From assembly GCA_030153785.1 (NCBI GenBank), contig JASKLF010000005.1, positions 32,001 to 96,000 of the forward strand: a DNA stretch of 64,000 nucleotides, written 5' to 3'. Shown piece after piece: positions 3,707-56,697 of the stretch. The position numbers and the translations under genes are program-made. Every line of letters starts with the position of its first letter. The stretch's first letter is position 1. This DNA comes from a bacterium (lineage in GTDB: Bacteria; Synergistota; GBS-1). The notes beneath the pieces were generated by a model. That model worked only from the letters and a program-made list of their open reading frames with translations, was not told the origin of the DNA and made no database searches.

Positions 3707-3715
3707 GGCAACTTA

Positions 3716-5296: not shown

Positions 5297-5311
5297 CTTC
5301 TACCACTCCCT

Positions 5312-8962: not shown

Positions 8963-8965
8963 TTT

Positions 8966-24792: not shown

Positions 24793-24807
24793 GGTTGAAA
24801 ACCTCAC

Positions 24808-31748: not shown

Positions 31749-31782
31749 AACCTATATTATACTCCAAAAGGGGGTGAATATC

Positions 31783-32298
31783 TTGTCCTTGGGGTTAGTT
31801 CAAGTTTATACGGGTAACGGTAAGGGTAAAACCACGGCTGCCTTGGGGCTTGCTATGAGGGCTTTAGGTCACGGTTACAAGGCTATAGTAATTCAGTTCA
31901 TGAAAGGGTGGGAATATGGGGAGCTAAGGTCCGCTTCAAAGCTTGGCCTTGAAATTGTCAGGTTTGGAAGGGCTTCTTTTGTGGATAGGAATAATCCGGC
32001 TGAAGAGGATATCGAGGAGGCTAAAAGGGGGTTCAGATTTGCCTACGAGGTTTTAAAGGGTGGAGAATATGATTTAGTAATCCTTGATGAAATAAATGTG
32101 GCTGTAGATTATGGGCTTATTTCTCTGGATGAGGTTTTAAGCCTTATAGAGATAAAACCTCCTCATGTGGAGCTCGTTTTGACAGGAAGATATGCTCATT
32201 CTAAGATAATAGAGAAGGCCGATTTAGTTAGCGAGGTGATGGAAATCAAGCACCCCTATCGTAGGGGGATAGAAATGAGGAGGGGTATAGACTATTAA
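31783..32298 (+). CDS. cobO: cob(I)alamin adenosyltransferase (CobA/CobO/BtuR)
   Basis: VQVYTGNGKGKTTAALG, QFMKG, LVILDE, ELVLTGR, KHP...GIDY. TTG start 31783 after GGGGGTGA. Confidence 0.9.
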   Translation: MSLGLVQVYTGNGKGKTTAALGLAMRALGHGYKAIVIQFMKGWEYGELRSASKLGLEIVRFGRASFVDRNNPAEEDIEEAKRGFRFAYEVLKGGEYDLVILDEINVAVDYGLISLDEVLSLIEIKPPHVELVLTGRYAHSKIIEKADLVSEVMEIKHPYRRGIEMRRGIDY

Positions 32299-38652: not shown

Positions 38653-39663
38653 ATGCCCTTAGTTGAGGTTGTAAAGGCTGGCTTGCTTACCACGGTTCAG
38701 GATTTGGGAAGGTTTGGCTATCAGGCGCAGGGGATAAACACGGCTGGTGCCATGGATGAATTCGCCTTGAGGTCCGCCAACATATTGGTGGGAAATCCTC
38801 AAAATGAAGCTTGCCTTGAGGTTACGCTCATTGGACCTACCTTGGCTTTCAATGACGATGTAATTGTGGCTATAACGGGTGGTGACCTTGGCCCTACCCT
38901 CGATGGTTTTCCCATCCCCATGTGGGAAAGCATCTACATTAAAAAGGGTAGCGTTCTTTCCTTTAGGGGGAGAAGATGGGGAGCTCGCTCTTACATCGCC
39001 TTTCAGGGGGGTATTTTTGTTGAGAAGGTGATGGGAAGCAAGTCTACCGATATAAGGGCTCAGATAGGAGGTCTCGAGGGAAGAGCATTGCGGGATGGTG
39101 ATAGGCTTTTTGTCGGCCTTCCTTTAGACAGATCCGTTTTAGGAAGGAGATTCCCTTCTGAGCTTCTACCGCCTTATTCTGACTCTCCCGTGCTGAGGGT
39201 TATCATGGGGCCCGAGGATGACCATTTTAAGCCCGAGTCTATCGAGAGCTTTTTATCTCAGGAGTGGCTTATAACCGAGGCTTCTGATAGAATGGGATAC
39301 AGGCTTGAGGGAGAGCCCTTGAGGCATAACGAAAAGGGAGCGGAGATAATATCCGATGGGATAGCCTTGGGAAGCATTCAGGTTCCAAAGGATGGTAAGC
39401 CGATAGTTCTTCTTAAGGATAGACAGGCGGTTGGCGGATATGCAAAAATAGCGACCGTTATTTCCGTAGATATACCTTTAATCGCTCAGACCCTTCCTGG
39501 GAATAAAGTGAGGTTCGAGAGGATATCCCTTGAGGAGGCGATAAAGGAGCTCGTGAGCTTTGAAAGGAAGCTGTATTATGTAAGCTTTGATGAAAGAAGG
39601 AAGAGTTCGTATAGAATAAAGATTAACGGCAAAGACTTTCTTGTAGAGGTGGAGGAAATTTGA
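38653..39663 (+). CDS. pxpC: 5-oxoprolinase subunit C (KipA/allophanate hydrolase subunit 2)
   Basis: TTVQDLGR.G, GAMD, AN.LVGN, SDRMGYRL, GSIQVP.DG.P, GGYAKIA. Confidence 0.9.
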   Translation: MPLVEVVKAGLLTTVQDLGRFGYQAQGINTAGAMDEFALRSANILVGNPQNEACLEVTLIGPTLAFNDDVIVAITGGDLGPTLDGFPIPMWESIYIKKGSVLSFRGRRWGARSYIAFQGGIFVEKVMGSKSTDIRAQIGGLEGRALRDGDRLFVGLPLDRSVLGRRFPSELLPPYSDSPVLRVIMGPEDDHFKPESIESFLSQEWLITEASDRMGYRLEGEPLRHNEKGAEIISDGIALGSIQVPKDGKPIVLLKDRQAVGGYAKIATVISVDIPLIAQTLPGNKVRFERISLEEAIKELVSFERKLYYVSFDERRKSSYRIKINGKDFLVEVEEI

Positions 39664-42600
39664 CTTTAAGAGGTAGGTTGTGTTTCATACTTACCCTTAT
39701 CTTTATAGCGTTAATCGCGGGGATAGGCTATTACTCTTACACCGTAGCCGTTAAGAGGATCGAGGATGGCGTTAAGGAGCACCTTTTAAGCCATATGGAT
39801 GCCATAGAAGATCTTGCCTCCTCATTTTCTCGAATTTTAAGCTTCGGTCTCAGAAGTAGGGGGGAGAAGGCATCGGATATCATTTTTGCCCTCTTCGGAT
39901 TTTTTGATGCCCTTCCGGATGAAGGCCTTTTAGAGAAGTCGTTGGAAAATTTAAACTTAAAGGGTGTAAGATTTTATCTCCTGGGGGAAAAAAACCTTCA
40001 AGGTTTACCTCTTCCAGAGGGTATTTCCACGAGGGAAGTCCTTTTCTCTCGGGAGGGAAGGGAGTTTTTTTCGGACCCTTCTGGGAATAAGCTCTTGCTG
40101 TTATGGAAGGAAAGGGGAGAGTCAGGTCTTCGCTACCTTGCCCTGGTATCTTTAAGCGAGTTCAGCGAGGAAGCGGAGATGCTCGTTTCGTTGGCAAGAG
40201 AGCTTCTCCTTGAGGCGTTCGGAAGACACCTTCTTGGGCCGAGGGGATACGTTCAGGTCTTTTCAAGTGATGGCACTCTCCTTCTTTTGAGAGGAAGCCA
40301 CATCTTGGACGAGGATGACCTTTTCGGTAGTTCATTTGTAAAGAGGGTTTTCGACTCAGGAAGGGAAGTTTTCACTTACGATTTTAAAGGGGAAAGAAAG
40401 GTGAGAGCCGGAGTAAGGCTGTTTTTCCCAGAGGTCTTCCCCGAGATGGTGGTAATTTCCACGGCTTATCTTTCGGACTTTACCGATGGGGCGGTGAGGG
40501 GCTTTATTCTGAGGGTCTCGGTGTTAGGAGCGATCTTGCTTTTTTCAACATTTTTCTTTATCAATCGCTTTTTAAGGAGGGGATTCTTTTCCTTCCTAAC
40601 TTCTCTGAGCGAAGGCTTTGATAACTTAATGAGGGGAAACTATGGTTACAGGATGAGAAAGCTTGGAGAGAAGTATTTAGATGAGTTAGTTGAAAAATTC
40701 AACAGAGTCGGTGAATCTCTTGACCTTCATAGAAAGGAGATCGAAAGAACCTACTCCGAGCTTTTGAAGATGCATTCCGATCTTAAGGGGAGCAAAGACG
40801 AGCTTGAAGCTACTTATGCCCAGCTTAAGGCCTATGCGAAAACTCTTGAAACGTTGACTGAGGAGCTTTCAAGGAGCAACGAGCTTTTAAGGATGATCGT
40901 TAGAGCTGGGGAAGAGCTTCTTGACTTGTCCAAGTTTTCCGACCCCTATTCTCGAATTTACGAAAGTCTCAGCACCTTTTATAAAGACTGTACCGTTGGA
41001 ATTTACGAGCCCTCTGGTGGTAGAAGAGTTTTGGTTAAAAAGGCTGGCGACGGCGAAGATGTGATAAGCGTGGAAGGCTCTATAGTGGAGGAGGCTCTGA
41101 AGGACATTAAGCCGTTGTTCCTTTCGGAAGGCGGAAAGGTGAGGCTTTTCGTTCCTATCAGTTTCGAGAACAAGCTTTACAGCATTATACTCATATCTTC
41201 AGAAGATAATCGCCTGGGCAAAGTTGACCTTGATGTCATATCGATGCTTGCGAGTATAGCGGGTACTGCTTTTGCAAATAAGGGGTATTTAGACTCTGCA
41301 ATAGAGAAGGCGAGAAAGCTTGGCGTTTTAGCTCAAATATCCGAGGTGTTAGCCTCAAGTAGAAGCCTCGTGGAGGACTTAAGGCTGATCATAGAAAATA
41401 TAGCGAACAAGCTTGAGTATGATTGTTTGGAGGTGTTCTTAAAGGAAGGAGAGCGCCTTCAGAGGGTGGCATCGGCTGGCAAAATATCGGAGATCGATTA
41501 TGGAGAGGAAGGCTGGGATATAAGCAAGGGGGTCTGTGGTTGGGTTGCAAGATATGGCAGAGGTGTCTTCATCCCCGATGTAACCAAGGATCACAGATAT
41601 GTGGAGGTTGTAAAGGGTATTAAGGGTGAGATAGTGGTTCCCATCTTAGGTGATGGTGAGATTTATGGAATCATAAACCTGGAGAGCTTTTCAGAGCTCT
41701 CTTATGATGATTACGAAATATTGAGCATACTTGGTAGGCAGATTGGTATGGCTTTAAGGAAAGAGAGGCTCTTTAAGAGTGTTGCAGAGGAAGCCAGGAG
41801 GTTTAAAACCCTGTATGAGCTATCTTTGGGATTGAGCTCTCCTGAAGCCTTAGAGGATGTTCTCGATAAAGTTTGCAAGAGAATAGAGAAGGAGCGGGGA
41901 TATGTTAACATAAGCGTAGCGATTTATGATAGAAAGCGTGTTTCGTGGAGGCTATTGGCTGGCAGGGTTAAGAGCAAGCTCTCGGAGGAAACCTTTAAGA
42001 AACTTGAAAGCGCTGGTGGGGTCGTATCCAAGGCTCTTCGTGAGGGTGCGGTGGTAAATGTTCCTGATGTTAGAAAGGTGGGGTATTACATCGAGGTTTT
42101 CGAGGAAACCCTGTCGGAGTTAGCTGTTCCCATATATGTGGGGGACAGAATAGAAGGCGTTTTGGATGTGGAGAGCCCTCGTTTGAATGATTTTTCTAAA
42201 GAGGATGAAGAGTTTTTTGAATCGATCGCTAATATGATTGGGCTTGTCTTAGCGAGGGAGAGGCTTCTTGAGGACTTAAGGACTCAAGGGAGGAAGCTTG
42301 AATCGCTTCTTCATATCTCAAGAAGACTGATGCTAATAAACGATGAGGACGAGTTGTATGGATATCTGTGTAAAGCTCTGGCTGAAAGCTTGGGCTATAA
42401 GAGGGTTGCCTATCGAAAGGTGGACTGGGAGAGAGGCATTGCCTTTTTAAAGGGCGAGGCTGGGGAATGGTTGGGTGTTGGTGAGAATATTCCCCTTGAC
42501 AGGGGGACGGTGGCTGGCTATGTGGCATTCACGGGGGATGTTTTCAAGAGCGACGATCTCGATAGCGACACGAGGATTAAAAGAAAATACATTAAGGGCG

Positions 42601-43835
42601 TTAAATCCATCATAGCCATTCCGTTGAAGGTCAACGGTAGCGTTGATGGCATCCTTTTCGTTTCTGATGGTGAAGAAAAGGCCTTCACCAAATATGATGA
42701 GGAGCTACTTTATATGGTGGTTAGCCTTCTTTCCTCTTCCTTAGATAGGATAAAGTTCTTAAATTCGATTAATAAGAAGAGTCAGGTTATGGATCTTCTT
42801 TATAAGCTTTCTTTAAGGCTTTCACGGTGCTTATCTGAAGAGGAAGTTTACGATGTGGTTATTGACTTCTTGAAAGAGGTAGAGTCTTATTCCAAGATAA
42901 CCATAATGACTCTTGAGGGAGAGGAGCTCGTTCTTAAAAGGTCTTATCCCTCAAGAGGTAAGGTAGTGAGGCTAAAGCTTGGTGAGGGTATAACGGGTTG
43001 GGTTGCGCTTCACGGTGAAAGCGTTTTGGTCGGAGATGTGTCTAAGGATTCCCGCTATGTCGAATGGTTTGAGGGCATTAAAAGTGAGCTTGCCGTTCCT
43101 GTAAGGGTTGAAGGCAACATCTACGGTGTTTTGAACTTGGAGAGCGAGATAATGGGAGTCTTCACCGAAGAGGACCGATGGCTCCTGGAGGCGGTTGCCA
43201 CATCAATGGGCATCGTGCTTGAAAATATTTCTCATCTGAAAGACCCGGAGGATAATCTTTTCGCTACCACCTTGGCCCTGGCAAAGACCATCGAATATAA
43301 AGACCCATACACAAGAGGACATTGTGAGAGAGTTATGGAGTATGCCGATGCCTTGGCCCTAAGAATAGGGCTTTCGGATGTTGAAAGGAAGCGATTAAGA
43401 TATGCCTGTATATTGCACGATATAGGGAAGATCGGCGTTCCCGGGCGTATTCTTGACAAGCCCGGAAGACTTACCGATGAGGAATATGAGATAGTTAAAA
43501 GACATCCCGTTTTGGGAGAGGAGCTTCTGAAAGAGGTTCCCTTCTTGAGGGAGATATCGCTTTTAGTTCGTTGGCATCATGAAAGATGGGATGGAAGGGG
43601 ATATCCTGATGGCTTGAAGGGTTATGAGATACCCTTGGAAAGCAGAATAATGGCCATAGCGGATGCCTTTGATGCCATGACTTCAGACAGACCCTACAGA
43701 AGGGCGCTTTCAAAGGAGGAAGCCATCGCCCAGATAAGAGGCGGTATGGGAACCCAATTTGACCCTGTGTTAGCTTCGGAGTTTCTGAGTTTAATAGAGG
43801 GGGGTGAGTTTGATGAGGATAGACTTAAACAGTGA
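39660..43835 (+). CDS. membrane sensor with HAMP, about five GAF domains and HD-GYP
   Basis: TM-periplasmic-TM, HAMP/coil, repeated GAF motifs (PDV..D.RY..SELAVP..GVL.LES), YTRGHCERV, LHDIGK, HHERWDGRGYP. Confidence 0.88.
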   Translation: MTLRGRLCFILTLIFIALIAGIGYYSYTVAVKRIEDGVKEHLLSHMDAIEDLASSFSRILSFGLRSRGEKASDIIFALFGFFDALPDEGLLEKSLENLNLKGVRFYLLGEKNLQGLPLPEGISTREVLFSREGREFFSDPSGNKLLLLWKERGESGLRYLALVSLSEFSEEAEMLVSLARELLLEAFGRHLLGPRGYVQVFSSDGTLLLLRGSHILDEDDLFGSSFVKRVFDSGREVFTYDFKGERKVRAGVRLFFPEVFPEMVVISTAYLSDFTDGAVRGFILRVSVLGAILLFSTFFFINRFLRRGFFSFLTSLSEGFDNLMRGNYGYRMRKLGEKYLDELVEKFNRVGESLDLHRKEIERTYSELLKMHSDLKGSKDELEATYAQLKAYAKTLETLTEELSRSNELLRMIVRAGEELLDLSKFSDPYSRIYESLSTFYKDCTVGIYEPSGGRRVLVKKAGDGEDVISVEGSIVEEALKDIKPLFLSEGGKVRLFVPISFENKLYSIILISSEDNRLGKVDLDVISMLASIAGTAFANKGYLDSAIEKARKLGVLAQISEVLASSRSLVEDLRLIIENIANKLEYDCLEVFLKEGERLQRVASAGKISEIDYGEEGWDISKGVCGWVARYGRGVFIPDVTKDHRYVEVVKGIKGEIVVPILGDGEIYGIINLESFSELSYDDYEILSILGRQIGMALRKERLFKSVAEEARRFKTLYELSLGLSSPEALEDVLDKVCKRIEKERGYVNISVAIYDRKRVSWRLLAGRVKSKLSEETFKKLESAGGVVSKALREGAVVNVPDVRKVGYYIEVFEETLSELAVPIYVGDRIEGVLDVESPRLNDFSKEDEEFFESIANMIGLVLARERLLEDLRTQGRKLESLLHISRRLMLINDEDELYGYLCKALAESLGYKRVAYRKVDWERGIAFLKGEAGEWLGVGENIPLDRGTVAGYVAFTGDVFKSDDLDSDTRIKRKYIKGVKSIIAIPLKVNGSVDGILFVSDGEEKAFTKYDEELLYMVVSLLSSSLDRIKFLNSINKKSQVMDLLYKLSLRLSRCLSEEEVYDVVIDFLKEVESYSKITIMTLEGEELVLKRSYPSRGKVVRLKLGEGITGWVALHGESVLVGDVSKDSRYVEWFEGIKSELAVPVRVEGNIYGVLNLESEIMGVFTEEDRWLLEAVATSMGIVLENISHLKDPEDNLFATTLALAKTIEYKDPYTRGHCERVMEYADALALRIGLSDVERKRLRYACILHDIGKIGVPGRILDKPGRLTDEEYEIVKRHPVLGEELLKEVPFLREISLLVRWHHERWDGRGYPDGLKGYEIPLESRIMAIADAFDAMTSDRPYRRALSKEEAIAQIRGGMGTQFDPVLASEFLSLIEGGEFDEDRLKQ

Positions 43836-45168: not shown

Positions 45169-45269
45169 TCTTAAAAATCTAAAGGAGGGTAGGTAAATGA
45201 GGGTTAAGCTTTTTGGTGAGATTCCCAAGGAATTTGACGAATTAAGTGAAGTTCGAGGAGGGAAAGGGA

Positions 45270-45683
45270 ATGAACAGGATAAAGATATCTTTAAACTTTT
45301 ATCTAAACGAGTTCGAGTGCCCTTGTTGTCAGAGGGTAAAGATAGATGAGATCTTGCTTTGGAAGCTTGAAGCTCTGAGGATAATCTGGGGTATGCCCTT
45401 AAGGGTGACGAGCGGTTACAGGTGTGAGAAGCACAACAAGGAGGTAGGCGGAGCTGAGAACTCTCTTCATCTTAGGGGAAGAGCGGTTGACATAGCTGTT
45501 AAGGAGGAGGACCAGGGAAAATTTCTAACCTTGGCGAAGCTCGTTGGCTTTAAGGTTATTCCCTATCCCAAGAGAAACTTTGTCCACTTAGATGTGGGAG
45601 GTGAAGGTCTTGGACGTATATCAGGTGATATCGAATCTAGGGTTTCCAATAGTCCTGAGCTTTTACCTTTTAACCCGTCTTGA
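45270..45683 (+). CDS. peptidase M15A (Zn D-Ala-D-Ala/L-Ala-D-Glu type, endolysin-like)
   Basis: NF...EF.C.CC, VTSGYRC..HN..VGG..NS.H..G.AVD, FVHLD. ATG 45270 after GAGGAGG. Confidence 0.85.
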   Translation: MNRIKISLNFYLNEFECPCCQRVKIDEILLWKLEALRIIWGMPLRVTSGYRCEKHNKEVGGAENSLHLRGRAVDIAVKEEDQGKFLTLAKLVGFKVIPYPKRNFVHLDVGGEGLGRISGDIESRVSNSPELLPFNPS

Positions 45684-47070: not shown

Positions 47071-47126
47071 TTGACATTGGAAGCTTTCTGTGATATTCTT
47101 TATTTATCGAACAATTTTGTATACAA
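47071..47126 (+). promoter_or_regulatory. promoter with GntR-type operator for the B12-enzyme operon
   Basis: TTGACA(47071)-17 nt-TATTCT with TGn extension; palindrome TTGTATACAA at 47117-47126 just before the gntR SD. Confidence 0.65.
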
Positions 47127-47137
47127 GGTGGTGTGCC

Positions 47138-47785
47138 ATGAAAGATATAGCCGAGCTTATAAAGAGAGGTATCATAATGGGTAAGTTTTTACCGGGGCAA
47201 CGGCTTAACGAGGCTGACCTGGCTGTTGAGTTTGGGGTGAGTAGGACGCCTGTAAGAGAGGCTTTAAGGGAATTGGTAGCGTGTGGTCTTCTTGAATATG
47301 AGAAGCATAAGGGGATAAGGGTGAAGAGGTATACCCTATCTGAGATAAGATACATATACGAGGTATGGTCTGAGCTGGAGGCTATAGCGGCGAGGCTATC
47401 TGCCTCTCGGATAGACGAAGCTTCCCTCCGGAGGATGAAGGATGTTCTCGATAAACAGGAAAGGCTTGTAAGGCTTGGGGAGATAAACTGGGATTACATA
47501 GAGCTTAATGATGAGTTTCATCTCGTTATTGCCAGTTCCACGCAAAATCCCTATTTGCTCAAAATGCTTTCTAACATGAGGGAGCTTATGAGACTTTACA
47601 GGCTTGGAAGCCCTGGCTGCTTGGGCAGGCTTAAGGATTCTTTTGAGGAGCATAAGAGGATCTTCGAGGCAATTAAAAATCGAGACCCGGAAGGAGCTTA
47701 TGCCTCAGCCTTTACCCATGTAAGGAATGCTTTCGCATATCTTGAAAATCGGGGGGTAAGCGAGATTGGTGTCCGAGCCTTATGA
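47138..47785 (+). CDS. GntR-family (FCD) transcriptional regulator
   Basis: PGQRL.EADLA..FGVSRTPVREAL, LNDEFH..IA....NPYL, EH..I..AI. ATG 47138. Confidence 0.92.
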   Translation: MKDIAELIKRGIIMGKFLPGQRLNEADLAVEFGVSRTPVREALRELVACGLLEYEKHKGIRVKRYTLSEIRYIYEVWSELEAIAARLSASRIDEASLRRMKDVLDKQERLVRLGEINWDYIELNDEFHLVIASSTQNPYLLKMLSNMRELMRLYRLGSPGCLGRLKDSFEEHKRIFEAIKNRDPEGAYASAFTHVRNAFAYLENRGVSEIGVRAL

Positions 47786-48203
47786 GAGGTTAAATAGGAG
47801 TCCTTTTTATCTTAAAAGGAGTCCTAAGGGCAGGCTTGTTGCCGTTTTGGACCTGAAGGTCATGGATAGGGGTTTAAAGCTCATTTTGCCCCGCTCGAGG
47901 GCTGTTAAGGCCTCTGAAATCCATGAAATAATAGTCACGCAGGAGGATGCTTCACCAGGGCAAACCGTGAATAACGCCGTCTATGTGGGTTTTTGGGAGG
48001 TTTTACAGGGTGGGATTTTGGAGGTCGGGGATGAGCTATGGATTGATGGAAAAAGGGTTGGCGTTTTGCTTGGCTTTGATGAGACTCACTTCCCCAATCA
48101 TATAAATATGGTGTTTAGGGGAGAGCCTCTAACGGGCAGGGAGAGGGGGCTGCCCTTAGAGGCTGAGGTTGTCTTTAGGGGGGAGGAATGGAGCGATGAG
48201 TAA
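47766..48203 (+). CDS. small beta-barrel protein of unknown function (DUF6917-like)
   Basis: RGL.LI...SRAV...EIHE, GF.EV..GG....GD, GFDETH.PNH.N; translationally coupled. Confidence 0.6.
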   Translation: MVSEPYERLNRSPFYLKRSPKGRLVAVLDLKVMDRGLKLILPRSRAVKASEIHEIIVTQEDASPGQTVNNAVYVGFWEVLQGGILEVGDELWIDGKRVGVLLGFDETHFPNHINMVFRGEPLTGRERGLPLEAEVVFRGEEWSDE

Positions 48204-49653
48204 CAGGTTTAAGTTCAAACTTTACAAGCATCTTCAGCTGAGCCTCCCGAAGATATACGAGGAGGCAAGGAGGGTTGCGGATGAAATAGGGATACCTAAG
48301 GAGATAAGGGGGAAGTTTGGATTAACGGGTGCCATATCCAGCTGTCATGGGCTTTTAACTCGTAAGGTGGCCAAGGTTATGGATGATGCGGCAAGGGAGG
48401 TTGTTCCTAACAAGGTTTATGACGAGGAGTTGAGGGAGATAATAAAGAGCTATTATGGAGATGAATATGATGCCTTGGCCGTTAATACCTGTGAAGCTGC
48501 CTTATGGCTGTGTTTCGATGTTTTAGTGAGTCCTCCTTTTCAGGGTAGAGGATATAACTATAGGTCCCGTTATATAGCTCCTTATGAAAGACACCTTCAT
48601 CATCAGGGTGGATACGGTAGGCCATTTCCTCCTAAGTACAAGGATATTTTTGCCGATAGGGGATGCACGGCCGGGGAGCTTGGATTTTATGGCAAGAGAC
48701 TTGAGAATGTGGATGTGGTTTATGTGCCCCTCGTGGGGGCAAGGTATGAAGTTCATGGAATAAAGTATCATCCTGTTGTATTGTTAAGCGGAGTTGACCC
48801 TAAAAGCTCGATTGAGAGAATTAAAGTTATTGCGGAGAGACACTCTCCCTTCTTGAGCGGTTTTAGCTCTCTCGCTTACGATACTCCCGGTTATGGTTAT
48901 GGGGTCAAGGATAAAGATGGAACCCCCGTTCTACAAAAGGGTATCGCCTCTTTGGCTAAAGATTTCGATGTTCCTTACATACTTGATAATGCGTGGGGAG
49001 TTCCTTTTATCGGCGCTGATTTAAGAAAGATAGGTGGAGATGTCATACTCTATAGCATGGACAAGGCGAGTGGTTCTCCCACCGTTGGGTTAATCATAGG
49101 GCGAGAGGATATCATGGTTTCTTTAAGAAGGGCCTTAGGGGTTCATGGGGATAGATGGGGGACCACGGGTTCCTACGGTAAGGCTGCTTATGTTACCTTT
49201 GACCCCGGTAAAGAGGCCCTCGTGGGATTAACGGCAGCATTAAAAGAGTTGCTCGATAACTCTAATAGGTTCATAAAGATGGTTGACAGGTTGTATGAGA
49301 TAACCATAGAGGAGTTTGGAAATATTCATCCCAACCTTAGGAAGGAGTTTAAGTTCGCTAAAAGCTATAATTCCGGTGCAGTTGAAATAAATTATGATAG
49401 GACTTGGATTGATGGTATCGGCCTTCCCATATTCTCGATAGAGGATATGTATTCTGGAACCAATATACTTCAAAGCGGTCTATCTCAAATGGGCATCATT
49501 CCAACTATAGCATATGATGCTAATATTTTCATCTCTCCCGGGCTTGGAACCACCGATGAAAATGGAGATCTCATTGAGGATCGAATGAGAATTGCGATAA
49601 GGGGATTGGTAAAGCTCATGGAGATAGTTGCAAAATACGCTGAATTGATATAA
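48196..49653 (+). CDS. uncharacterised fold-type I PLP-dependent enzyme (distant SelA/transferase-like)
   Basis: VNTCEAAL, VPYILDNAWG (PLP Asp), ILYSMDKASGSPTVGLIIGR (PLP Lys). ATG 48196. Confidence 0.7.
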   Translation: MSNRFKFKLYKHLQLSLPKIYEEARRVADEIGIPKEIRGKFGLTGAISSCHGLLTRKVAKVMDDAAREVVPNKVYDEELREIIKSYYGDEYDALAVNTCEAALWLCFDVLVSPPFQGRGYNYRSRYIAPYERHLHHQGGYGRPFPPKYKDIFADRGCTAGELGFYGKRLENVDVVYVPLVGARYEVHGIKYHPVVLLSGVDPKSSIERIKVIAERHSPFLSGFSSLAYDTPGYGYGVKDKDGTPVLQKGIASLAKDFDVPYILDNAWGVPFIGADLRKIGGDVILYSMDKASGSPTVGLIIGREDIMVSLRRALGVHGDRWGTTGSYGKAAYVTFDPGKEALVGLTAALKELLDNSNRFIKMVDRLYEITIEEFGNIHPNLRKEFKFAKSYNSGAVEINYDRTWIDGIGLPIFSIEDMYSGTNILQSGLSQMGIIPTIAYDANIFISPGLGTTDENGDLIEDRMRIAIRGLVKLMEIVAKYAELI

Positions 49654-49690
49654 GCTTAAAGGTAACATTTCGATGGGGAGGTGCAGATAC

Positions 49691-50704
49691 ATGTTAAGGG
49701 GAAGGTTTTTGTGTATCATGGTGTTGCTTCTTTCCCTGTGTGTTGGGAGTATGGCCTTAGCTTCTGAGCTTAAGCCAGTAACTTTAACATGGGTAGCTGG
49801 TGGAGTTGGAGGAGGTTGGTATACTCAAGCGGGTGCTCTGGCTTCCTTGATTAATCAGAAAGAGCCTAAGATAACCATCAAGGTTGTTCCCGGTGGAGGA
49901 GTAGTTAACCCGATGCGCGTTTCCTCAGGCGAGGCTGACCTTGGGTGGGGTATAACCTTTGTCGATAAGATGGCTTATAAGGGACTTCAGCCTCTTTACA
50001 AAAAAGCGTTCCCGAATGTTAGAGCCATAGGTGGCTATTTTGGATATTATCATATTCATTTTATCGCCGCTGCCGAAACGGGAATTAAAACCGTTAAAGA
50101 GCTTGCTGATATGGTTAAGGCGGGTAAGCCCATAAGAATAGCTATACCCATGAAGGGGACATCTGATTTGCCTCTTGCTGAGAGGATTCTTGCTTTCTAC
50201 GGGATTAGCCTGGAGGACATTAAGAAGGCCGGTGGAGAGTATTTCCATGCGGTCTATGCCGATATGGTAAGCAACTATAAGGACCGCCATGTAGATTTCG
50301 TTATAACGCATCTTTCTTTACCTGCTGCGGCTGTAACGGAGATGTTTGTTTCCCGTGACTCCGTTCTTTTGGCCGTTTCGGATGAGTGCATAGACACGAT
50401 AAGCAAGGAGCTTGGAACCGTTCCTCGTGAGACAGGATTGTGTGTAATTCCGGCTGGAACTTATAAGGGGCAGAATGAGGATGTTCCTGCGGTTGCCACC
50501 GCTGGCGAGCTTTTGGTTAACGCCAACGTGCCTGAAGATGTGGTTTATACCATCACCAAGATACTGTGCGAGAATATTGAGGAAGTCTATGCTGCTCATC
50601 CAGCGAATAAGACTTTCGACCCCAAAACGGGGTGGAAGAACATAGCGGTTCCTCTTCACCCGGGTGCCGAGAAGTATTACAAGGAAAAGGGATACATGAA
50701 GTAG
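49691..50704 (+). CDS. TAXI-family TRAP solute-binding protein
   Basis: Signal peptide, AGGVGGGWY, GG.V.N, VPEDVVY.ITK, VPLHPGAEKYY. Confidence 0.88.
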   Translation: MLRGRFLCIMVLLLSLCVGSMALASELKPVTLTWVAGGVGGGWYTQAGALASLINQKEPKITIKVVPGGGVVNPMRVSSGEADLGWGITFVDKMAYKGLQPLYKKAFPNVRAIGGYFGYYHIHFIAAAETGIKTVKELADMVKAGKPIRIAIPMKGTSDLPLAERILAFYGISLEDIKKAGGEYFHAVYADMVSNYKDRHVDFVITHLSLPAAAVTEMFVSRDSVLLAVSDECIDTISKELGTVPRETGLCVIPAGTYKGQNEDVPAVATAGELLVNANVPEDVVYTITKILCENIEEVYAAHPANKTFDPKTGWKNIAVPLHPGAEKYYKEKGYMK

Positions 50705-50720
50705 GGAGCTGAAGATACTC

Positions 50721-52619
50721 GTGCGGGTTCTTTCAGGTTGGCAAAGATATTTAGTGGGCGTGTGGCTTACCGCCACCGCCCTTTTTCATCTTTATACCGC
50801 TACCACGGGAGTTTTACAGCCGAGATATCAACGGGGAATTCATCTCCTTTTACTTTTGCCATTGGCTTTTTTGCTTTATCCAGCGACAAAGAAGTCTCCA
50901 CGCGATAGGTTTACCCTTTTAGACTCCCTTTTTGCGTTTCTTTCCCTTTTCCCTCCTCTTTACTTAATAGTTTTTAACGACGCATTGAACTTGAGATACG
51001 AATTTGTTGACCCTGTAACGCCCTTAGAGCTTACATTGGGTTTAATGAATATAGTTTTGCTTTTGGAAGCCATAAGGCGCGCTGTGGTTCCCGCTATGGC
51101 CTTGCTTCTATCGGTTCTTATGGGATACCTTTTCATTGCTCCTTATCTTCCGGGTGTTTTTTACGCTAAGCCATTGCCTTTGGGAAGGTTTGTAGAAATG
51201 TTTTATCTTATAACCGATAGCGGAATATATGGAGCGATAACGGGGATATCAGCTACAGTAGTGGCTCTTTTCGTTATCTTGGGTGCCTTTCTGGAAACCA
51301 CCAAGGTTGGAGATTATCTCACGAATATAGCTGCCAGGATAGCGGGAAGAGGACCAGGAGGTCCGGCGAAGATTGCCGTTTTGGCGAGCGGGCTCTTTGG
51401 TTCCATAAGCGGGGTGGCGGCAAGTAATGTATATGCCACAGGAAGCTTTACCATACCTATGATGAAAAGGTTGGGGTATAAACCGGAGTTTGCGGGAGCT
51501 GTTGAGGCGGTGGCTTCCACAGGTGGGATATTTATGCCTCCTGTGATGGGAGCTGCTGCCTTTGTTATGTCGGAGCTTACCAATATACCCTATATAAAGA
51601 TATGCGCCGCCGCTTTACTGGGAGCGATATTCTACTATTTGGCTCTGGGCCTTACCGTTCACTATGTGGCTCTCAGAGATAACCTTAAAGGGATGTCCAA
51701 GGAGGAGCTTCCCAAGTGGCGAGAGCTCGCTCGCGATTCCTACCTTCTTGCACCGGCATTTGGGTTGGTTTATTTTCTGATCAAGGGGTATTCTCCCTTT
51801 ATGGCAGCCTACTACTCGATATGGATTTCCATATTAATAAGCTTCTTTAAAAGGGAAACTTTCATGACCCCTAAGAGACTTCTCTTTTCCTTGGAGCGTG
51901 GGGCTTCAAATATGATAATAGTTGCTTTGGCCTGTGCGGGCGCTGGCATGGTAGTAAGTATTCTGACCCATACCGGTTTGGGTTTGGGACTGGCTTCAAT
52001 CATAACTACCCTTTCGAAGGGGCACCTTCTTTTGGCTCTTATATTGGTTATGATAGTTTGCCTGATTCTCGGCATGGGACTTCCAACCACACCTGCGTAT
52101 GTTATAGCGGTAACCATAGCTGGGCCTGCTTTGCTTAAGATGGGTGTAGACCCTTTAAAGGCTCATATGTTTTCCCTTTACTTCGCTAAGCTTTCCGAAG
52201 TTACACCGCCTGTTTGCGTAGCTTCCTACTGTGCAGCTTCAATTGCAGGAACGGATCCTATGAAGGTTGGCTTTGTCAGCTGGAGGCTTGCGCTTACGGG
52301 ATATCTCGTCGGATACATATTCATCTATAACGATGCTCTGCTTCTGAGGGGTAGCTTGGCAGAGATAGGATCGATCATCGTTTTTATGACGGTAATTTCT
52401 CTATCTCTGGCTATAGGTGTAGCGGGATATTTTAGAGGAAGATTAAGTTTGCTTGAAAGGTCGTTGTTCTTCGGTATTGTGATTGCTTTTACTCTCTTTT
52501 CAACCCTAAAGGGGTTTCCTCGTGAAACTGTGGCTTTGTTTGTGACCGTGTTTGCTTTGGGATATTTAGGTGTGAGTAAGTTTCTACTTAAAAAAGAAGA
52601 GGCTTCTAAGATAATTTAG
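50721..52619 (+). CDS. TRAP transporter fused 4TM/12TM permease (TAXI type)
   Basis: GGPAKIAV..SGLFGSISG....NV..TG..TIPMMK..GY, ASTGG..MPPVMGAAAF, LGMGLPT..AY, VTPPV. Confidence 0.92.
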   Translation: MRVLSGWQRYLVGVWLTATALFHLYTATTGVLQPRYQRGIHLLLLLPLAFLLYPATKKSPRDRFTLLDSLFAFLSLFPPLYLIVFNDALNLRYEFVDPVTPLELTLGLMNIVLLLEAIRRAVVPAMALLLSVLMGYLFIAPYLPGVFYAKPLPLGRFVEMFYLITDSGIYGAITGISATVVALFVILGAFLETTKVGDYLTNIAARIAGRGPGGPAKIAVLASGLFGSISGVAASNVYATGSFTIPMMKRLGYKPEFAGAVEAVASTGGIFMPPVMGAAAFVMSELTNIPYIKICAAALLGAIFYYLALGLTVHYVALRDNLKGMSKEELPKWRELARDSYLLAPAFGLVYFLIKGYSPFMAAYYSIWISILISFFKRETFMTPKRLLFSLERGASNMIIVALACAGAGMVVSILTHTGLGLGLASIITTLSKGHLLLALILVMIVCLILGMGLPTTPAYVIAVTIAGPALLKMGVDPLKAHMFSLYFAKLSEVTPPVCVASYCAASIAGTDPMKVGFVSWRLALTGYLVGYIFIYNDALLLRGSLAEIGSIIVFMTVISLSLAIGVAGYFRGRLSLLERSLFFGIVIAFTLFSTLKGFPRETVALFVTVFALGYLGVSKFLLKKEEASKII

Positions 52620-52650
52620 CGGTTTGAGTGGTTTCCTATGGGGTGGGGGG

Positions 52651-52890
52651 ATGGAGAGGATGTTTGAGGGAAGGATTTTAGATGCCCTTGATATTGAAGC
52701 GGTGTTTGTTGCCGAGGATGAGGAGGAGGCAAAAAGATTAGGGATTGACTTGGTTAGATCCTTTGGTCTTAAGGATGGGGATGTGGTTTTTTTAGAGAAG
52801 ATTGGGAAATTTGTTCGCGTCAGGCTTCGTGCCTATGTCTATAGACCGGGGGATAGATATTATTGGCTTTGTGGAGATGAGGCTAAATGA
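52651..52890 (+). CDS. small protein resembling the aminomutase dimerisation (OAM_dimer) domain
   Basis: 79 aa; EEEAKRLGIDLVRSFGLKDGDVVFLEKIGKFVRVRL recalls the KamE/OraE dimer-domain pattern (EAA...MGL....VV..E.LG); ATGA-coupled to the B12 enzyme. Confidence 0.5.
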   Translation: MERMFEGRILDALDIEAVFVAEDEEEAKRLGIDLVRSFGLKDGDVVFLEKIGKFVRVRLRAYVYRPGDRYYWLCGDEAK

Positions 52891-54665
52891 AGATATTGAT
52901 GGTGCCTTTGGACCCCGTTCATGATGTTGCTTTAAAGATGCTGAAAAGGGAATTAATTGGCCGAGGATACGAGATAGTCCTTCTTCCTCCAGATATGAAG
53001 CTTGAAGAGGTAGTAGAGATATGTAAGCATGAGAGGCCTTCCTTCATAATGGTAAGTAGAACGGTAGGGTATGGAGCAAGTGAAATATTAGGCAGGTTTA
53101 TAGATCTTCTTGATGCCTCTGGAGTAAGGAAGTTTGCCCGGGTTATTGTGGGAGGAAAGGCTGTAACTAAGGAACTCGCTGCCGAACTTGGGTATGATGC
53201 GGGGTTTGGCGAAGGGACGAAGTGGGAAGATGTGGTTGCCTATATAGAGGGTAGGCCTGTTAAAAGAGGGGATGCCTTTTTTAAAAGAGAGAAGAGAGAT
53301 ATTACCAAGGGGTATAGTTACAGGATAGTTGATGAGGCTTTTTTAGACCCTTTAGATGAGATAGTAAGTCAGGTTTTAGAATGGGTTTCCGATAAAAGCT
53401 CTCCTGCGATAGAAAGGGCGAAGATAAGGGAAAGGATTCTTGCCGGTGAAGACCTTCTCGGGGAGTATTTGAAGCTTTGCGATGATTTAGTGAAGGGCTT
53501 TTATCTTAGGGGTGAAGTCCCTAAGAGGGTTAAGGTTTTAGCTGATGAGGAAGTGGATAGATTTAAGCGTTTTATAGGTGATACCCTCTTTCCTGAAGAG
53601 CCTTCCCCATTTTCGGATGGAAATCCTCTTATCTTCATCCAATATGGGACAGGCTGTCCCTTCATGGATGGGCTTCACATAAAGATATGTGAAGCGTGGG
53701 GAGCTAACGGCTTTCTTCACTTCGATCCCTCTTGGGGGGCAAGGCTTGAAGGCCTTCTTAGCGGGATACTCTCTCACGAGGAAGACGGCACGATATTGAC
53801 TCTTGAAAATTTAAAGCTTATCAAATCCCTCTTAAGCGAGTCAAGCCTTTGGAGCGTTAGAGCCCATAGGGGGTTGAATACTCCTGAAACGGTTGTCCTT
53901 GCATATGCTGCTGGTGCGGATTTGACGAAGATAAACATGGTTTATGGTTCCTTAAATGGGGGGACCGATCCTGAAAGGCTTGTAGTTGATGGGGTCTATG
54001 CGATAAAGCTTGCGTCGAAATTTAGCTTACCCTTTGATATCCCTACCAATGAGGAGTTGGGTGGCATTCCCGCTTATAAGGCCTTCGCTGGAATGCTTAT
54101 AGTAGCTCATTTGGGAGTTAAGCTCGGTGCCAAGCCCATATTAAAGCCCTTGTTCTGTTTTTCTCCCGATGTGATGATTAATGGCTATATGGATGATAAC
54201 TATGTGGATTATAATGTGGCAAAGGTTCTCGCCTTAAGGGAGATAATGGATGCCCCCATTTGGGCTGGTGAACCGATAGGCTTTATGACCCATAGCGAGG
54301 AAAGGGTTCAATCAGCGCTCACAACGGCGCTTCATGCGGGTTTGGCCAAGTCTCTTAGTCTTGATGCTGTTACCATAGCGTCGACCGATGAGGCTTATGC
54401 AAGGGGGGCGATAACCTCTGCTTCGAGGGTTGATTCTCTAAGGGGAGTCAAGGAAGCCTTCAGATTTCTTGGAAGAGCTTTAATCGAGCCTACATCTAAG
54501 GCGAAGAGCTTCAAGGAACTTATCAAAGAGGGAGTGTTGAGAACCTTAGATAGGGTCGCAAAAAGGGGAGATTTTGTGGCTTCCCTTTATGAGGGCTTAT
54601 TAGGGACGAGGGAAGAGGGAGCTACCCCTGGAAGGGCTGGGAGGGGAACGATTTTAAGATGCTAA
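52887..54665 (+). CDS. cobalamin-dependent enzyme: N-terminal B12-binding domain plus aminomutase-like TIM barrel
   Basis: DPVHDVA (His-on motif), MVSRT, IVGG, LAAELGYDAGFGEGT (KamE-like); barrel motifs YGTGCPFMD..AWGA, GLNTPE, NMVYGSL..DPERLVVD resemble KamD/OraE. Confidence 0.75.
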   Translation: MKILMVPLDPVHDVALKMLKRELIGRGYEIVLLPPDMKLEEVVEICKHERPSFIMVSRTVGYGASEILGRFIDLLDASGVRKFARVIVGGKAVTKELAAELGYDAGFGEGTKWEDVVAYIEGRPVKRGDAFFKREKRDITKGYSYRIVDEAFLDPLDEIVSQVLEWVSDKSSPAIERAKIRERILAGEDLLGEYLKLCDDLVKGFYLRGEVPKRVKVLADEEVDRFKRFIGDTLFPEEPSPFSDGNPLIFIQYGTGCPFMDGLHIKICEAWGANGFLHFDPSWGARLEGLLSGILSHEEDGTILTLENLKLIKSLLSESSLWSVRAHRGLNTPETVVLAYAAGADLTKINMVYGSLNGGTDPERLVVDGVYAIKLASKFSLPFDIPTNEELGGIPAYKAFAGMLIVAHLGVKLGAKPILKPLFCFSPDVMINGYMDDNYVDYNVAKVLALREIMDAPIWAGEPIGFMTHSEERVQSALTTALHAGLAKSLSLDAVTIASTDEAYARGAITSASRVDSLRGVKEAFRFLGRALIEPTSKAKSFKELIKEGVLRTLDRVAKRGDFVASLYEGLLGTREEGATPGRAGRGTILRC

Positions 54666-55567
54666 GCTTGGGGGTATTCGGAACTGCGAAGAATACGGGA
54701 AAGACCACGGTTTTCAATACGGCTTTGAGATGCCTTTGGGGGTTCGGGCGTGTGGCGATAACCAGTATAGGCTTCGATGGCGAAGATTTGGACCACATAA
54801 CGGGGCTTCCCAAGCCCAAGGTAGTGGTTGACGAAGGTATTTGGATAGTAACAAGTAAAGGGGTAACATGGAGAGCCACCGCGAGGCTTGAGTTAGTTAG
54901 GGGTCTCGACGTTGATACTCCCTTTGGCTCTTTGGAAATATATAAGGCTAAGTCGCCTGGTAGAGTTCCACTCGTGGGGCCTAACCGGGCTGATGACTTG
55001 CTTAAAGTGAAGGAAATTCTTGCAGGTTACGGGGTTGAGCTCTTTCTGGTTGACGGGGCTATCAATCGCATGATTCCCTTTCAATACGTGGATCTTGTTA
55101 TCCTCGCAACGGGAGCGTCTCGAAGCACCAACATTGAAGAGCTACTTTTGGAAACGGAAGCCATTGTTAAAGCTCTTTTCCTACCGAAGGGAGAAATCGG
55201 CAAGCTTGAGCTCCTTGAGGGACCTATAAGCTTTGAAGTTTTGAAAAGCTATGAGGGTAGGGGGATTTTGGTAGAATCACCTTTCCACGTGCTTTTACTC
55301 ATTGATTACAGGAATTTGCTTGACCTGCTAAGGAAGGTAGAGGTCTTCGTCTTAAGGAAACCTGAGCTTTTGTGTATTACTCTGAACCCCACTTACCCTG
55401 AAAGGAGGATAGAGGGCTTTAGGCTTTCCATGATAGATTTCTCTTCCCTTAAAAGCTTTCTCTCCAAGAAGCTCGGCGTTCCCTGTATAGATGTTTTGAG
55501 GGAAGAGGATGAGCTCTGTGAACTTTTAAATGCGAGGGTGAGAAGAGGATGGGCGTTTACGACTTGA
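54659..55567 (+). CDS. KamB-like P-loop protein (aminomutase accessory or reactivase-type)
   Basis: GTAKNTGKTT, TSIGFDGEDLD.ITG.PKP, TPFG, LVGP, LVDGAINR, ILATGA, NP.YP; same motif order as the P-loop protein of lysine fermentation kam clusters. Confidence 0.65.
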   Translation: MLSLGVFGTAKNTGKTTVFNTALRCLWGFGRVAITSIGFDGEDLDHITGLPKPKVVVDEGIWIVTSKGVTWRATARLELVRGLDVDTPFGSLEIYKAKSPGRVPLVGPNRADDLLKVKEILAGYGVELFLVDGAINRMIPFQYVDLVILATGASRSTNIEELLLETEAIVKALFLPKGEIGKLELLEGPISFEVLKSYEGRGILVESPFHVLLLIDYRNLLDLLRKVEVFVLRKPELLCITLNPTYPERRIEGFRLSMIDFSSLKSFLSKKLGVPCIDVLREEDELCELLNARVRRGWAFTT

Positions 55568-56697
55568 TTATCATAGGAGGAGGAATTATAGGGTGTTCTA
55601 TAGCTTATCACGTCTCCCTTTTTAAAAAGTGGAGAATCTTGATTATCGAAAAGAATGGCATAGCTGGAGGGGCTTCTGGCTCTTGCGATGGAATTTTGTC
55701 TATTCTCTCGAAAAAGGGCGGTATACATCTTGAACTTGCCTTGGAGAGCCTTTCCATGATTAAAAGCTTGTCGAAAGAGCTTCCTATCGATATCGAGTTT
55801 CAGGAAACTCCGGGGATGGTAGTAATAGAAGATGAGGGTTATCTTCCCTTTATGGAGAGATTCGTGAATGAACAGAGGAAAAACACCGACCTTAAGATAG
55901 ATTTCTTAAATCCTAAGGAAGCTTTGCGTTTTGAGCCTCTATTGTCCACGAGAATTGCGGGGGTTTTAAGGTCTCCTCAGAATGGTCAGGTTAATCCGAT
56001 ATATCTTACTTATGCCTTCTTTGAGGGTGCCCGCTTAAGGGGGGTAGAATTGAGAAGGGGGGAAGAGGTTCTCGCTGTTGAAAGGAAGGGCTTCGGCGGT
56101 TTTAGGGTTTTAACTTCTCACGGTAGTTATGAGTCTGAAAGGGTAGTCCTTTCTGCTGGTTCTTGGTCTCCGCTTATATCCTCTTCTATAGGTATAGAGC
56201 TTCCTATAAAGCCGAGGAGAGGACAGCTCCTTGTTACCGAACCTATTGCAAGAGCCATAAATCACACCGTGCTTTCGAGCAGATATATAGTGGCCAAATA
56301 TGGGGTTGATACGGGTGGTAAGGAGGGGTTGGCCTTAGAGCAAACCCATCACGGTGCCTTTTTAATAGGGGCAACAAGAGAGTTTGTGGGCTACGATAAA
56401 AGCGTAACTTCCTCCGCTTTCGAAAGGCTTTCCAAAAATGCTGTAGAGGCCTTCCCCTTTTTGCGTGGCTTGAGGGTTATAAGGGCTTTTGCGGGATTAA
56501 GACCCTGGACGCCTGATGGCTTACCGATAATAGATAACATAGATGGTCTCTTTTTGGCTTGTGGGCACGAGGGAGATGGGATATGCCTTTCTGCCGTAAC
56601 GGGTAAGCTTTTAAGCGAGCTTATAGTTTATGGTAAGGCTTCATTTGATGTATCTCCCTTTTCCTTAAGCAGATTTAATACCTCTTCAGCTTTGTAG
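55549..56697 (+). CDS. FAD-dependent oxidoreductase, D-amino acid/glycine oxidase (DAO) family
   Basis: IIGGGIIG.SIAY, GASG, GQVNP, PRRGQ, AGLRPWTPDGLPII, GHEGDG. Confidence 0.88.
   Translation: MGVYDLIIIGGGIIGCSIAYHVSLFKKWRILIIEKNGIAGGASGSCDGILSILSKKGGIHLELALESLSMIKSLSKELPIDIEFQETPGMVVIEDEGYLPFMERFVNEQRKNTDLKIDFLNPKEALRFEPLLSTRIAGVLRSPQNGQVNPIYLTYAFFEGARLRGVELRRGEEVLAVERKGFGGFRVLTSHGSYESERVVLSAGSWSPLISSSIGIELPIKPRRGQLLVTEPIARAINHTVLSSRYIVAKYGVDTGGKEGLALEQTHHGAFLIGATREFVGYDKSVTSSAFERLSKNAVEAFPFLRGLRVIRAFAGLRPWTPDGLPIIDNIDGLFLACGHEGDGICLSAVTGKLLSELIVYGKASFDVSPFSLSRFNTSSAL

Follow-up and report, generated by a model that had tools for sequence, protein, structure and literature searches.

Adenosylcobalamin (AdoCbl) supports, to our knowledge, only about a dozen known radical reactions, and the closest described relatives of the system analyzed here are lysine 5,6-aminomutase (KamD/KamE with KamB and KamC; PDB 1xrs, 8t0v, 9q1a), D-ornithine 4,5-aminomutase (OraS/OraE; PDB 3kp1, 3kow), and glutamate mutase (GlmS/GlmE; PDB 1cb7, 6h9e). 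The two aminomutases also use pyridoxal 5'-phosphate (PLP), glutamate mutase is PLP-free, and KamB and KamC presumably act as reactivases, as their NCBIfam names indicate. Here, we analyzed a window of 64,000 nucleotides (nt) from a GBS-1 member of the Synergistota (GCA_030153785.1, contig JASKLF010000005.1, positions 32,001 to 96,000), in which positions 47138-56697 of the forward strand are filled by nine open reading frames (ORFs), all co-oriented (table 1). The original prediction, made from the letters of the window, took these genes for an undescribed operon degrading an amino compound through B12 radical chemistry. Our analysis indicates that the B12 enzyme of this operon is probably a PLP-free AdoCbl radical enzyme, and we tentatively propose that its barrel, which lacks a PLP site, forms together with an always-linked, separate PLP enzyme the core of a pathway degrading a diamino-dicarboxylic acid taken up from outside, with diaminopimelate (DAP) as the leading candidate. 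Breakdown of DAP via lysine is ordinary biochemistry and a B12 route would be new; such a route appears undescribed and, as had been predicted, no description of the B12 family, of DUF6917, or of the locus tags HM1_2740-2745 was found in the literature searched, subscription papers lying mostly outside that search. The database names of family members are generic.

The genome of the window (hereafter G000; 1.52 Mb, 95.7% complete) was compared with two carrier relatives from the same phylum (G051 and G052) and with a species-level genome set searched with narrow patterns. Locus counts refer to the best 80 loci of 231 matching stretches, many of these loci being incomplete, and genome-level counts to 50 of those 80 genomes, to which G051 and G052 were added for the PLP enzyme; related genomes are not independent, and the counts are tallies rather than tests.

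Within the B12 enzyme, a cobalamin domain (about residues 1-125, with the B12-binding family match at 10-112) precedes a KamD-like TIM barrel (about residues 148-592). The cobalamin domain has KamE as its best PDB match (E 2e-10; E 4e-18 with a profile). The barrel region found no named sequence relative in database searches, and its profile, run against 1.84 billion representatives, returned 54 matches, all from its own family, with no named mutase. Three lines connected it to KamD: an HHalign comparison of 79 family sequences with 12 from KamD (411 columns, E 1.2e-7), a fold search, and a lead from a language model, which scored 0.95 for a cluster carrying 22% PF09043. Indeed, a Foldseek search with the AlphaFold model (pLDDT 83.9, falling below 50 in loops 281-286, 355-357, 464-471, and 501-507) placed KamD 1xrs_A at the top (E 1e-16), followed by OraE and glutamate mutase, and structure comparison (VIA) gave for KamD a Z score of 30.6 and a root-mean-square deviation of 3.0 A over 383 residues at 16% identity, ahead of GlmE (25.9), OraE (24.3), and methylmalonyl-CoA mutase (MCM; 18.9). 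The curated aminomutase families (NF052384, NF052385, NF040743, PF09043) do not claim the protein, with 49 bits against a cut-off of 280, 23 against 800, and the barrel unmatched. As for the 79-residue protein, its window copy was unmatched in the family scan, its profile resembles the N-terminal dimerization domain of KamE (HHalign E 7.7e-6), a relative matches PF16554 (E 5e-4), and its gene is present at 77 of the 80 loci. Because the barrel matches KamD, the cobalamin domain KamE, and the 79-residue protein the KamE dimerization domain, all parts of KamDE are present, cut and joined in another arrangement.

A fusion of a methyltransferase with a corrinoid protein, devoid of radical chemistry, is extremely improbable, even if the cobalamin domain weakly matches methylamine corrinoid proteins (E 5e-9) and the usual DxHxxG motif is shifted to DPVHD, its Asp standing one place earlier and His+3 being occupied by G (56 sequences) or A (the other 23). 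KamE remains the better match of that domain, methyltransferase corrinoid families score 36 bits against 370, and lower, pterin-binding barrels reach a Z score of only about 16 against 30.6 for KamD, and the glutamate linked to homolysis, the dimerization subunit, and KamB are all kept. The prediction that the B12 protein is not a corrinoid partner of a methyltransferase thus holds, given its mutase-type barrel and homolysis glutamate.

To locate the active site, residues were mapped through KamD, KamE, and OraE sequences from carrier genomes. On our reading, the radical machinery is retained: H12 (codon 52920-52922), the putative cobalt ligand, is invariant in 79/79 sequences, as is E502 (codon 54390-54392), which in profile alignment corresponds to OraE E338, GlmE E330, and MCM E370, glutamates that have been tied to Co-C cleavage (PMC4413051). 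In His-on AdoCbl mutases, this glutamate stands at barrel strand 8 and contacts the adenosyl ribose. By contrast, the PLP site of KamDE/OraSE, mapped as in PMC3958899, is gone. The position of the PLP lysine (KamE K144 / OraE K629, His+11) holds L, F, or M in all 79 sequences, with deletion of the KamE loop; the phosphate arginine R184 is replaced by an invariant D280, which matches by motif the Asp found at that strand in the PLP-free mutases GlmE and MCM; the GQS loop (G187-S189) is replaced or deleted; and the PLP contacts S238 and R268 have become R328 and G/A358. The PLP-stacking tyrosine is retained (Y353). K348, invariant in 79/79, maps to OraE H182, a substrate-carboxylate ligand (PMC3958899). 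In the GlmE alignment, which is weak (E 0.036), Q64, D96, R149, and Y181 have invariant counterparts, R149 corresponding to R325. Together with the acidic D280, D384, E389, and E390, the invariant basic residues R325, R328, and K348 suggest, on our reading of these alignments, a rebuilt substrate site of mixed charge, as for a zwitterionic substrate.

Since the homolysis glutamate is kept but the lysine loop and phosphate cup for PLP have been lost, the enzyme is likely a radical mutase, yet not a PLP aminomutase, and the framing of the original prediction, which placed it beside the AdoCbl/PLP aminomutases KamDE and OraSE, had to be given up. The conserved radical machinery of the aminomutases combined with a rebuilt active site suggests that the family probably catalyzes another reaction. 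That it would be a PLP-dependent aminomutase after all, its PLP being anchored on K348 or passed on in aldimine form by the separate PLP enzyme, is in our judgment doubtful to a high degree. KamD is indeed the nearest structure, Y353 is kept, K348 is invariant, and the PLP enzyme co-occurs in 52/52 carriers; but the phosphate arginine is an invariant Asp, the GQS loop and the second arginine are gone, K348 coincides with the carboxylate ligand H182 of OraE (PMC3958899), and the partner enzyme itself possesses a full fold-type-I site.

Compared with lysine 5,6-aminomutase, then, the system shares the barrel with its accessory clamp, the cobalamin and dimerization domains, the KamB-like neighbor, the homolysis glutamate, and the stacking tyrosine, but the cobalamin domain is here fused before the barrel, the dimerization domain has a gene to itself, neither the lysine loop nor the phosphate cup for PLP is present, the cobalamin motif reads DPVHD, KamC is lacking, a separate PLP enzyme is obligatory, and the kamA/kdd/kce context is absent. 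With OraS/OraE it shares the barrel fold, the pair E338 and E502, and the presence of barrel and cobalamin domain on one chain, whereas the domain order is opposite, K629, R297, and H182 are not kept, and G000 is without a GlmL-type reactivase. With GlmS/GlmE it shares a PLP-free, presumably His-on barrel in which Q64, D96, R149, Y181, and E330 are matched by invariants in the weak alignment, whereas R66 and E171 are not kept, the domains are fused, KamB replaces GlmL, and methylaspartase is missing. Searches of the 95.7% complete G000 found no KamD/OraE, GlmE (PF06368), or GlmL/OraF-type genes; the PF09043 control was unmatched in that search as well, and the same family was detected in 20/50 carrier genomes.

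The partner PLP enzyme belongs to fold type I, with an Asp to the pyridine nitrogen and a Schiff-base Lys, and its site is complete (model pLDDT 86.1): D264 and K290 (codon 49063-49065) are invariant in 33 sequences. Its family matches are only weak and DgaE/SelA-related (E 1.5e-7), its best sequence matches being the DgaE and sulfhydrylase families, and the DgaE ammonia-lyase families lie far above its scores (TIGR01437, 30.7 against 385; NF047797, 14 against 600). With the DgaE/SelA/Cap15 group it shares the fold type and the Asp264 and Lys290 motifs, but at 10-16% identity and with about 100 extra residues, no structure being outstanding; sequence and fold searches of the PDB found no close relative.

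In DUF6917, the conserved H53-E54 and D105-x-T-H108-x-P-N-H112 could possibly form a metal site. An Atlas search returned its own family only, and an insensitive search for longer, fused forms found none, even if such a fusion exists: DUF6917 is joined to a DXS-like thiamine diphosphate (ThDP) enzyme on a Streptomyces plasmid (L127:9977-12304). Outside the operon, DUF6917 is found beside a proline-racemase-family gene and an Ldh-family reductase; in Thermomicrobium roseum (L126:10830-14233), its neighbors are a proline-racemase-family gene on one side and a ThDP enzyme on the other.

The KamB-like protein of the window scores 173 bits against the NF052386 cut-off of 210, its relatives reach 254 and 226, and its P-loop is conserved in at least 90% of 60 sequences. 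The KamB-like gene is found in 49/50 carrier genomes, against 20/50 for KamD/OraE. KamC, which is MutS-like, exceeds its cut-off in 3/54 genomes, each time beside kamD, and the KamC search of G000 gave only MutS-size matches; PF13941, considered as KamC, was rejected, KamC being MutS-like. In one genome (G025; L124:1-1902), a second KamB-like gene next to a 91-aa fragment of the B12 gene is probably a broken second copy.

As had been predicted, these genes are conserved together across genomes. The PLP enzyme is present in 52/52 carrier genomes and 0/28 non-carriers; among the 80 loci, the counts are 63 for KamB, 58 for the PLP enzyme, 50 for an HTH_12-FCD regulator, 45 for a GidA-like flavoprotein family (44/50 carrier genomes, paralogues included), 27 for a RidA-like protein, and 21 for a membrane protein of 460 aa. 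Within the phylum of the window, the B12 enzyme is patchy (2/60 relatives): G051 has the nine genes in the same order and G052 the nine roles with a different TAXI-TRAP. Several Firmicutes carry a second, paralogous locus reduced to regulator, small subunit, B12, and PLP genes. Overall, the core consists of the small subunit, the B12 enzyme, the PLP enzyme, and KamB (plus DUF6917), and TAXI-TRAP, DAO, and regulator are swapped between lineages, so that the nine genes do not form a single fixed unit. Two side groups of loci were also seen: the PLP enzyme, mostly with DUF6917, accompanied by a gene of the PrpD/MmgE family and by transporters of several kinds, the stretch covered containing no B12 gene (L236, L253, L265, L287, L322, L249), and, on high-GC soil and peat contigs (L239, L250, L256, L258, and kin), DUF6917, an AceE-like ThDP enzyme, the PLP enzyme, the small subunit, the B12 enzyme, and lysA, with no KamB nearby.

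TAXI-TRAP and DAO form an accessory module occurring in three phyla. TAXI is found at 65-78% identity in Thermotogota and Atribacterota operons, and both genes in the operons of three Pseudothermotoga genomes, one Atribacterota genome, and two metagenome loci, where they are accompanied by a racemase and by 2Fe-2S, FAD/4Fe-4S, and BFD subunits; DAO was counted in 1/80 loci with a 10-kb cut and lies just beyond that cut in three Pseudothermotoga operons. In a FastTree phylogeny, the operon-linked DAOs form a group apart from the other DAO genes of the genome. The DAO flavoprotein is likely the catalytic subunit of a multi-subunit amino- or imino-acid dehydrogenase. A complete four-gene flavin amino-acid dehydrogenase cluster occurs on another contig of G000 (C2:43167-46484; L331), three subunits of which are 50-67% identical to genes within the Pseudothermotoga operon and may partner the DAO of the window. 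The likeness to flavin dehydrogenase complexes, such as those of proline, hydroxyproline, or opines, extends to the DAO-family subunit and, in Pseudothermotoga and Atribacterota, to the 2Fe-2S, FAD/4Fe-4S, and BFD subunit genes, but the operon-linked DAOs are a clade of their own and the partner subunits of G000 are encoded elsewhere. The PDB matches of TAXI and DAO were too distant for naming a ligand.

The regulator is lineage-specific, being GntR/FCD here and HTH_12-FCD or PAS_6-HTH in other carriers. Nine carriers are without the GidA-like flavoprotein, of which four (G000, G051, G052, G008) have an in-operon DAO and one (G017) a DAP dehydrogenase, which suggests that these three enzymes are alternative routes to one oxidation. 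A GidA-like paralogue is also seen paired with a PRK05802 iron-sulfur flavoprotein (L021, L026, L033, L042, L043, L053, L072, L318, L319, L327).

The presence of an importer and an FCD regulator fits catabolism, and the operon is, in our view, probably catabolic. The identity of its substrate, the order of the steps, and the earlier claim that the substrate is neither lysine nor ornithine are inferences; the following contexts make DAP or its oxo-acid a plausible but tentative candidate. dapF occurs in 13/80 and ddh in 6/80 loci, from about four lineages and mostly in-operon (Thermotogota, Atribacterota, Vecturithrix); in one further locus, dapF is flanked by the genes for the PLP enzyme and the small subunit; lysA follows the B12 gene after 50-130 nt in 8 of 80 metagenome loci, a group of related peat loci; and the Vecturithrix operon includes a DapL-like gene, the Atribacterota operon a DapA paralogue. 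In addition, two mutase-free genomes (G073, G082) have, together with ddh and dapF, the types of GidA-like flavoprotein and HTH_12-FCD regulator that characterize Firmicute carriers. Such mutase-free clusters, which carry ddh and dapF in two cases and the 460-aa membrane protein in one (L315, L316, L317), are a related, undescribed catabolic module. ThDP 2-oxoacid enzymes lie beside the DUF6917-PLP pair in soil and peat loci. A link to the cell wall is weak: in seven loci a murQ/nagZ/anmK cluster is located upstream of the DUF6917-PLP pair, separated from it by birA, dppA, and other genes. Four loci of Firmicute carriers (L215, L216, L217, L234) combine ddh and, in many cases, dapF with a large regulator-like gene located upstream and with transporters or a peptidase resembling DppA; they are possible DAP salvage units.

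In G000 itself, lysA, dapF, ddh, and dapB were not found, and a LysW-route lysine/arginine cluster with two LysX copies is present (C11:9795-15706; L330). On this basis, DAP in G000 would be imported rather than made, which favors import and breakdown over synthesis.

How the operon might degrade DAP can be sketched as follows. From what is known of the families, H12 would bind cobalt, homolysis of AdoCbl would yield a 5'-deoxyadenosyl radical abstracting a substrate hydrogen in the barrel, and KamB would remove damaged cofactor. TAXI-TRAP would import DAP, and the DAO flavoprotein would oxidize its D-center to 2-amino-6-oxopimelate, a step that DAP dehydrogenase or the GidA-like flavoprotein would perform in other carriers. 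The B12 enzyme would then move the glycyl group from C3 to C4, as in glutamate mutase, to give 2-amino-3-methyl-5-oxoadipate, with K348 holding the far carboxylate or keto group; this shift would position the C3-C4 bond for the PLP enzyme to beta-eliminate pyruvate, and the remaining 2-aminocrotonate would be hydrolyzed (by RidA) to 2-oxobutyrate and ammonia, DUF6917 possibly opening or closing cyclic imines. We propose a skeleton shift because it gives B12 a purpose, by setting a ketone-activated carbon beside the beta-carbon and making a C-C bond cleavable by a PLP enzyme, and because RidA and ThDP neighbors recur. This would amount to new B12 chemistry, in which a PLP-free carbon-skeleton mutase of aminomutase descent would shorten a DAP-derived chain and a new PLP C-C lyase would yield pyruvate and 2-oxobutyrate, with KamB working without KamC; we consider it a rather long shot, and the exact route, every chemical step of which is conjectural, an even longer one.

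Several observations weigh against this proposal. dapF and ddh are absent from G000 and G052, and ddh from G051; 9 of the 13 dapF loci are from Pseudothermotoga, the 8 lysA loci are close kin, and 62/80 loci have no DAP-pathway gene in the stretch covered. Non-carrier relatives commonly have DapF homologues that share 40-46% identity with the one in G051, and the notion that a catabolic DapF clade marks carriers failed, a clade defined on a quick tree occurring in 12/29 carriers and 1/5 non-carriers of one class. Satellite dapF/ddh loci also encode C-S lyases and a member of the D-cysteine-desulfhydrase family, a gene content equally compatible with a thioether, lanthionine for example. Pseudothermotoga has DAO and DAP dehydrogenase together (all three types), so that these are not simple substitutes, and in 19/44 metagenome loci of at least 9 kb the stretch covered contains the PLP and DUF6917 genes but lacks a B12 gene. 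The reaction type of the PLP enzyme cannot be read from its modeled fold, the Z scores of 20-22.6 being tied among transaminases, aldolases, and lyases, all of which would be compatible. Besides, the residue equivalences given above are profile alignments rather than superpositions, and several loops have low confidence in the model. As to the skeleton shift, R66, R149, and E171 are the glycyl-binding residues of GlmE (PMC10947579); in the weak alignment only R149 maps, both among these and within the arginine claw R66/R100/R149 plus E171, with R66 becoming G254 and E171 becoming K348, of opposite charge. This apparent replacement of E171 by K348 is the main structural objection to the shift.

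The same enzymes might also act on another imported amino acid, such as a cyclic imino acid, a lanthionine-type thioether, or a gamma-substituted compound like 2,4-diaminobutyrate or a hydroxy-amino acid, with a PLP-free B12 1,2-shift or elimination positioning a leaving group for PLP elimination, followed by RidA and a 2-oxoacid enzyme. This alternative, which we hold to be possible but on the unlikely side, would account for RidA in 27/80 loci, the DgaE and sulfhydrylase matches of the PLP enzyme, the absence from G000 of every DAP gene tested, the C-S lyases beside dapF, and the proline-racemase-family and Ldh-family neighbors of DUF6917 elsewhere. It leaves unexplained, however, the in-operon ddh and dapF of two phyla, the dapF and DapL-like genes of a third, and the lysA following the operon in a fourth, as well as the loci combining flavoprotein, regulator, ddh, and dapF; moreover, PLP gamma-lyases handle many such substrates without B12.

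The distribution of the core also bears on a biosynthetic or housekeeping role, in which a modified amino acid would be made from DAP or lysine for wall, spore, or osmolyte, as a B12 counterpart of the PylB conversion of lysine to methylornithine. In one Firmicute class the enzyme is present in 29/34 genomes, there among housekeeping genes, it occurs in Heliobacteria, and the dapA-like, dapL-like, dapF, ddh, and lysA neighbors all belong to lysine-biosynthesis families. Against this, importers and FCD or PAS regulators are found in most lineages, ligase or export genes do not recur, G000 is without a DAP pathway, and the presence in the window's phylum is patchy, so that we rate such a role as improbable and keep degradation of imported DAP as our preferred interpretation. 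If the skeleton-shift reading, rated above as a long shot, were true as well, anaerobes of several phyla would ferment cell-wall DAP while bypassing lysine, with KamB working without KamC. The family is widespread, and its cultured carriers (Pseudothermotoga thermarum, Tepidanaerobacter syntrophicus, and Heliobacteria) make direct testing feasible; its study could add a new subfamily of PLP enzymes, give DUF6917 its first function, and supply an example of KamB lacking its KamC partner, and the operon copy of the window is compact, its soluble binding protein and regulator being suited to ligand screens.

With regard to the layout of this copy, the nine closely spaced genes were found as predicted, with gaps of -20, -8, +19 (+40 if the second ATG is used), +16, +31, -4, -7, and -19 nt, and the predicted gene families agree with our family scans. 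A divergent ClC-family gene flanks the operon on one side and a convergent lipA on the other. The predicted promoter-like site and the palindrome, a putative operator, are both present, and the -35 box and the palindrome stand at the same place in G051 and G052, but promoter-like sites are close to shuffled sequences in number (2 observed against 0.9 +/- 1.0), and the palindrome TTGTATACAA, exact at the equivalent place in G051 and with one mismatch in G052, is not rarer in the genome than chance (2 copies against about 3.5 expected); it adjoins the ribosome-binding site, which may explain part of its conservation. A scan for internal promoters and terminators stayed at chance level. Among sequencing runs, four from one study carry a metatranscriptomic label but probably derive from DNA, and one RNA run has a share of 0.06. 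The cob(I)alamin adenosyltransferase (CobA) that had been put forward as a supplier of AdoCbl is a real ORF (31693-32298), but it is not specific evidence for the operon, because the genome also has an MCM-family enzyme, which CobA may serve.

Table 1. Coordinates of the operon and associated features, as positions in the window.
Feature	Position	Strand	Basis
Asp/Glu-racemase-family gene	24106-24807	-	42% identity to in-operon Pseudothermotoga racemase
Promoter-like site, sigma-70-type, TTGACA-17-TATTCT, extended TG	47071-47099	+	Motif scan; -35 box at same place in G051, G052
Palindrome TTGTATACAA, putative operator for FCD regulator	47117-47126	.	Kept in two relatives
GntR/FCD regulator	47138-47785	+	Family match GntR+FCD
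DUF6917 protein	47766-48203	+	E 7e-42; in 42/80 loci
Orphan fold-type-I PLP enzyme, 485 aa	48196-49653	+	Invariant D264, K290
TAXI-TRAP substrate-binding protein	49673-50704	+	TIGR02122 over cut-off
TRAP permease, fused DctQM	50721-52619	+	TIGR02123 over cut-off
79-aa small subunit, detached OAM_dimer-type dimerization domain	52651-52890	+	KamE/PF16554 matches
AdoCbl enzyme, 592 aa	52887-54665	+	Cobalamin domain and KamD-like TIM barrel
KamB-like P-loop protein, predicted reactivase/chaperone	54659-55567	+	NF052386, 173 bits, below cut-off of 210
DAO-family flavoprotein	55549-56697	+	DAO E 1.7e-67

Around the operon, the Asp/Glu-racemase-family gene is possibly a detached operon member, and the DAO gene and the convergent lipA share 70 nt at their 3' ends (56628-56697). 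Upstream of the operon, a gene for a peptidase of the M15 family, a family of cell-wall hydrolases, is present in G000 (45246-45683, forward strand), with the ClC gene intervening, and also in G051 and G052 (L108:16734-17162; L110:6637-7152), which provides a further, weak link to peptidoglycan. Further away, the window contains at 2657-9637, on the reverse strand, a co-oriented group comprising two aminopeptidase-like genes, one gene resembling an oligopeptide transporter, and several unknowns, all named by eye, and at 39660-43835, on the forward strand, a gene whose 1391-aa product contains four GAF domains and one HD domain.

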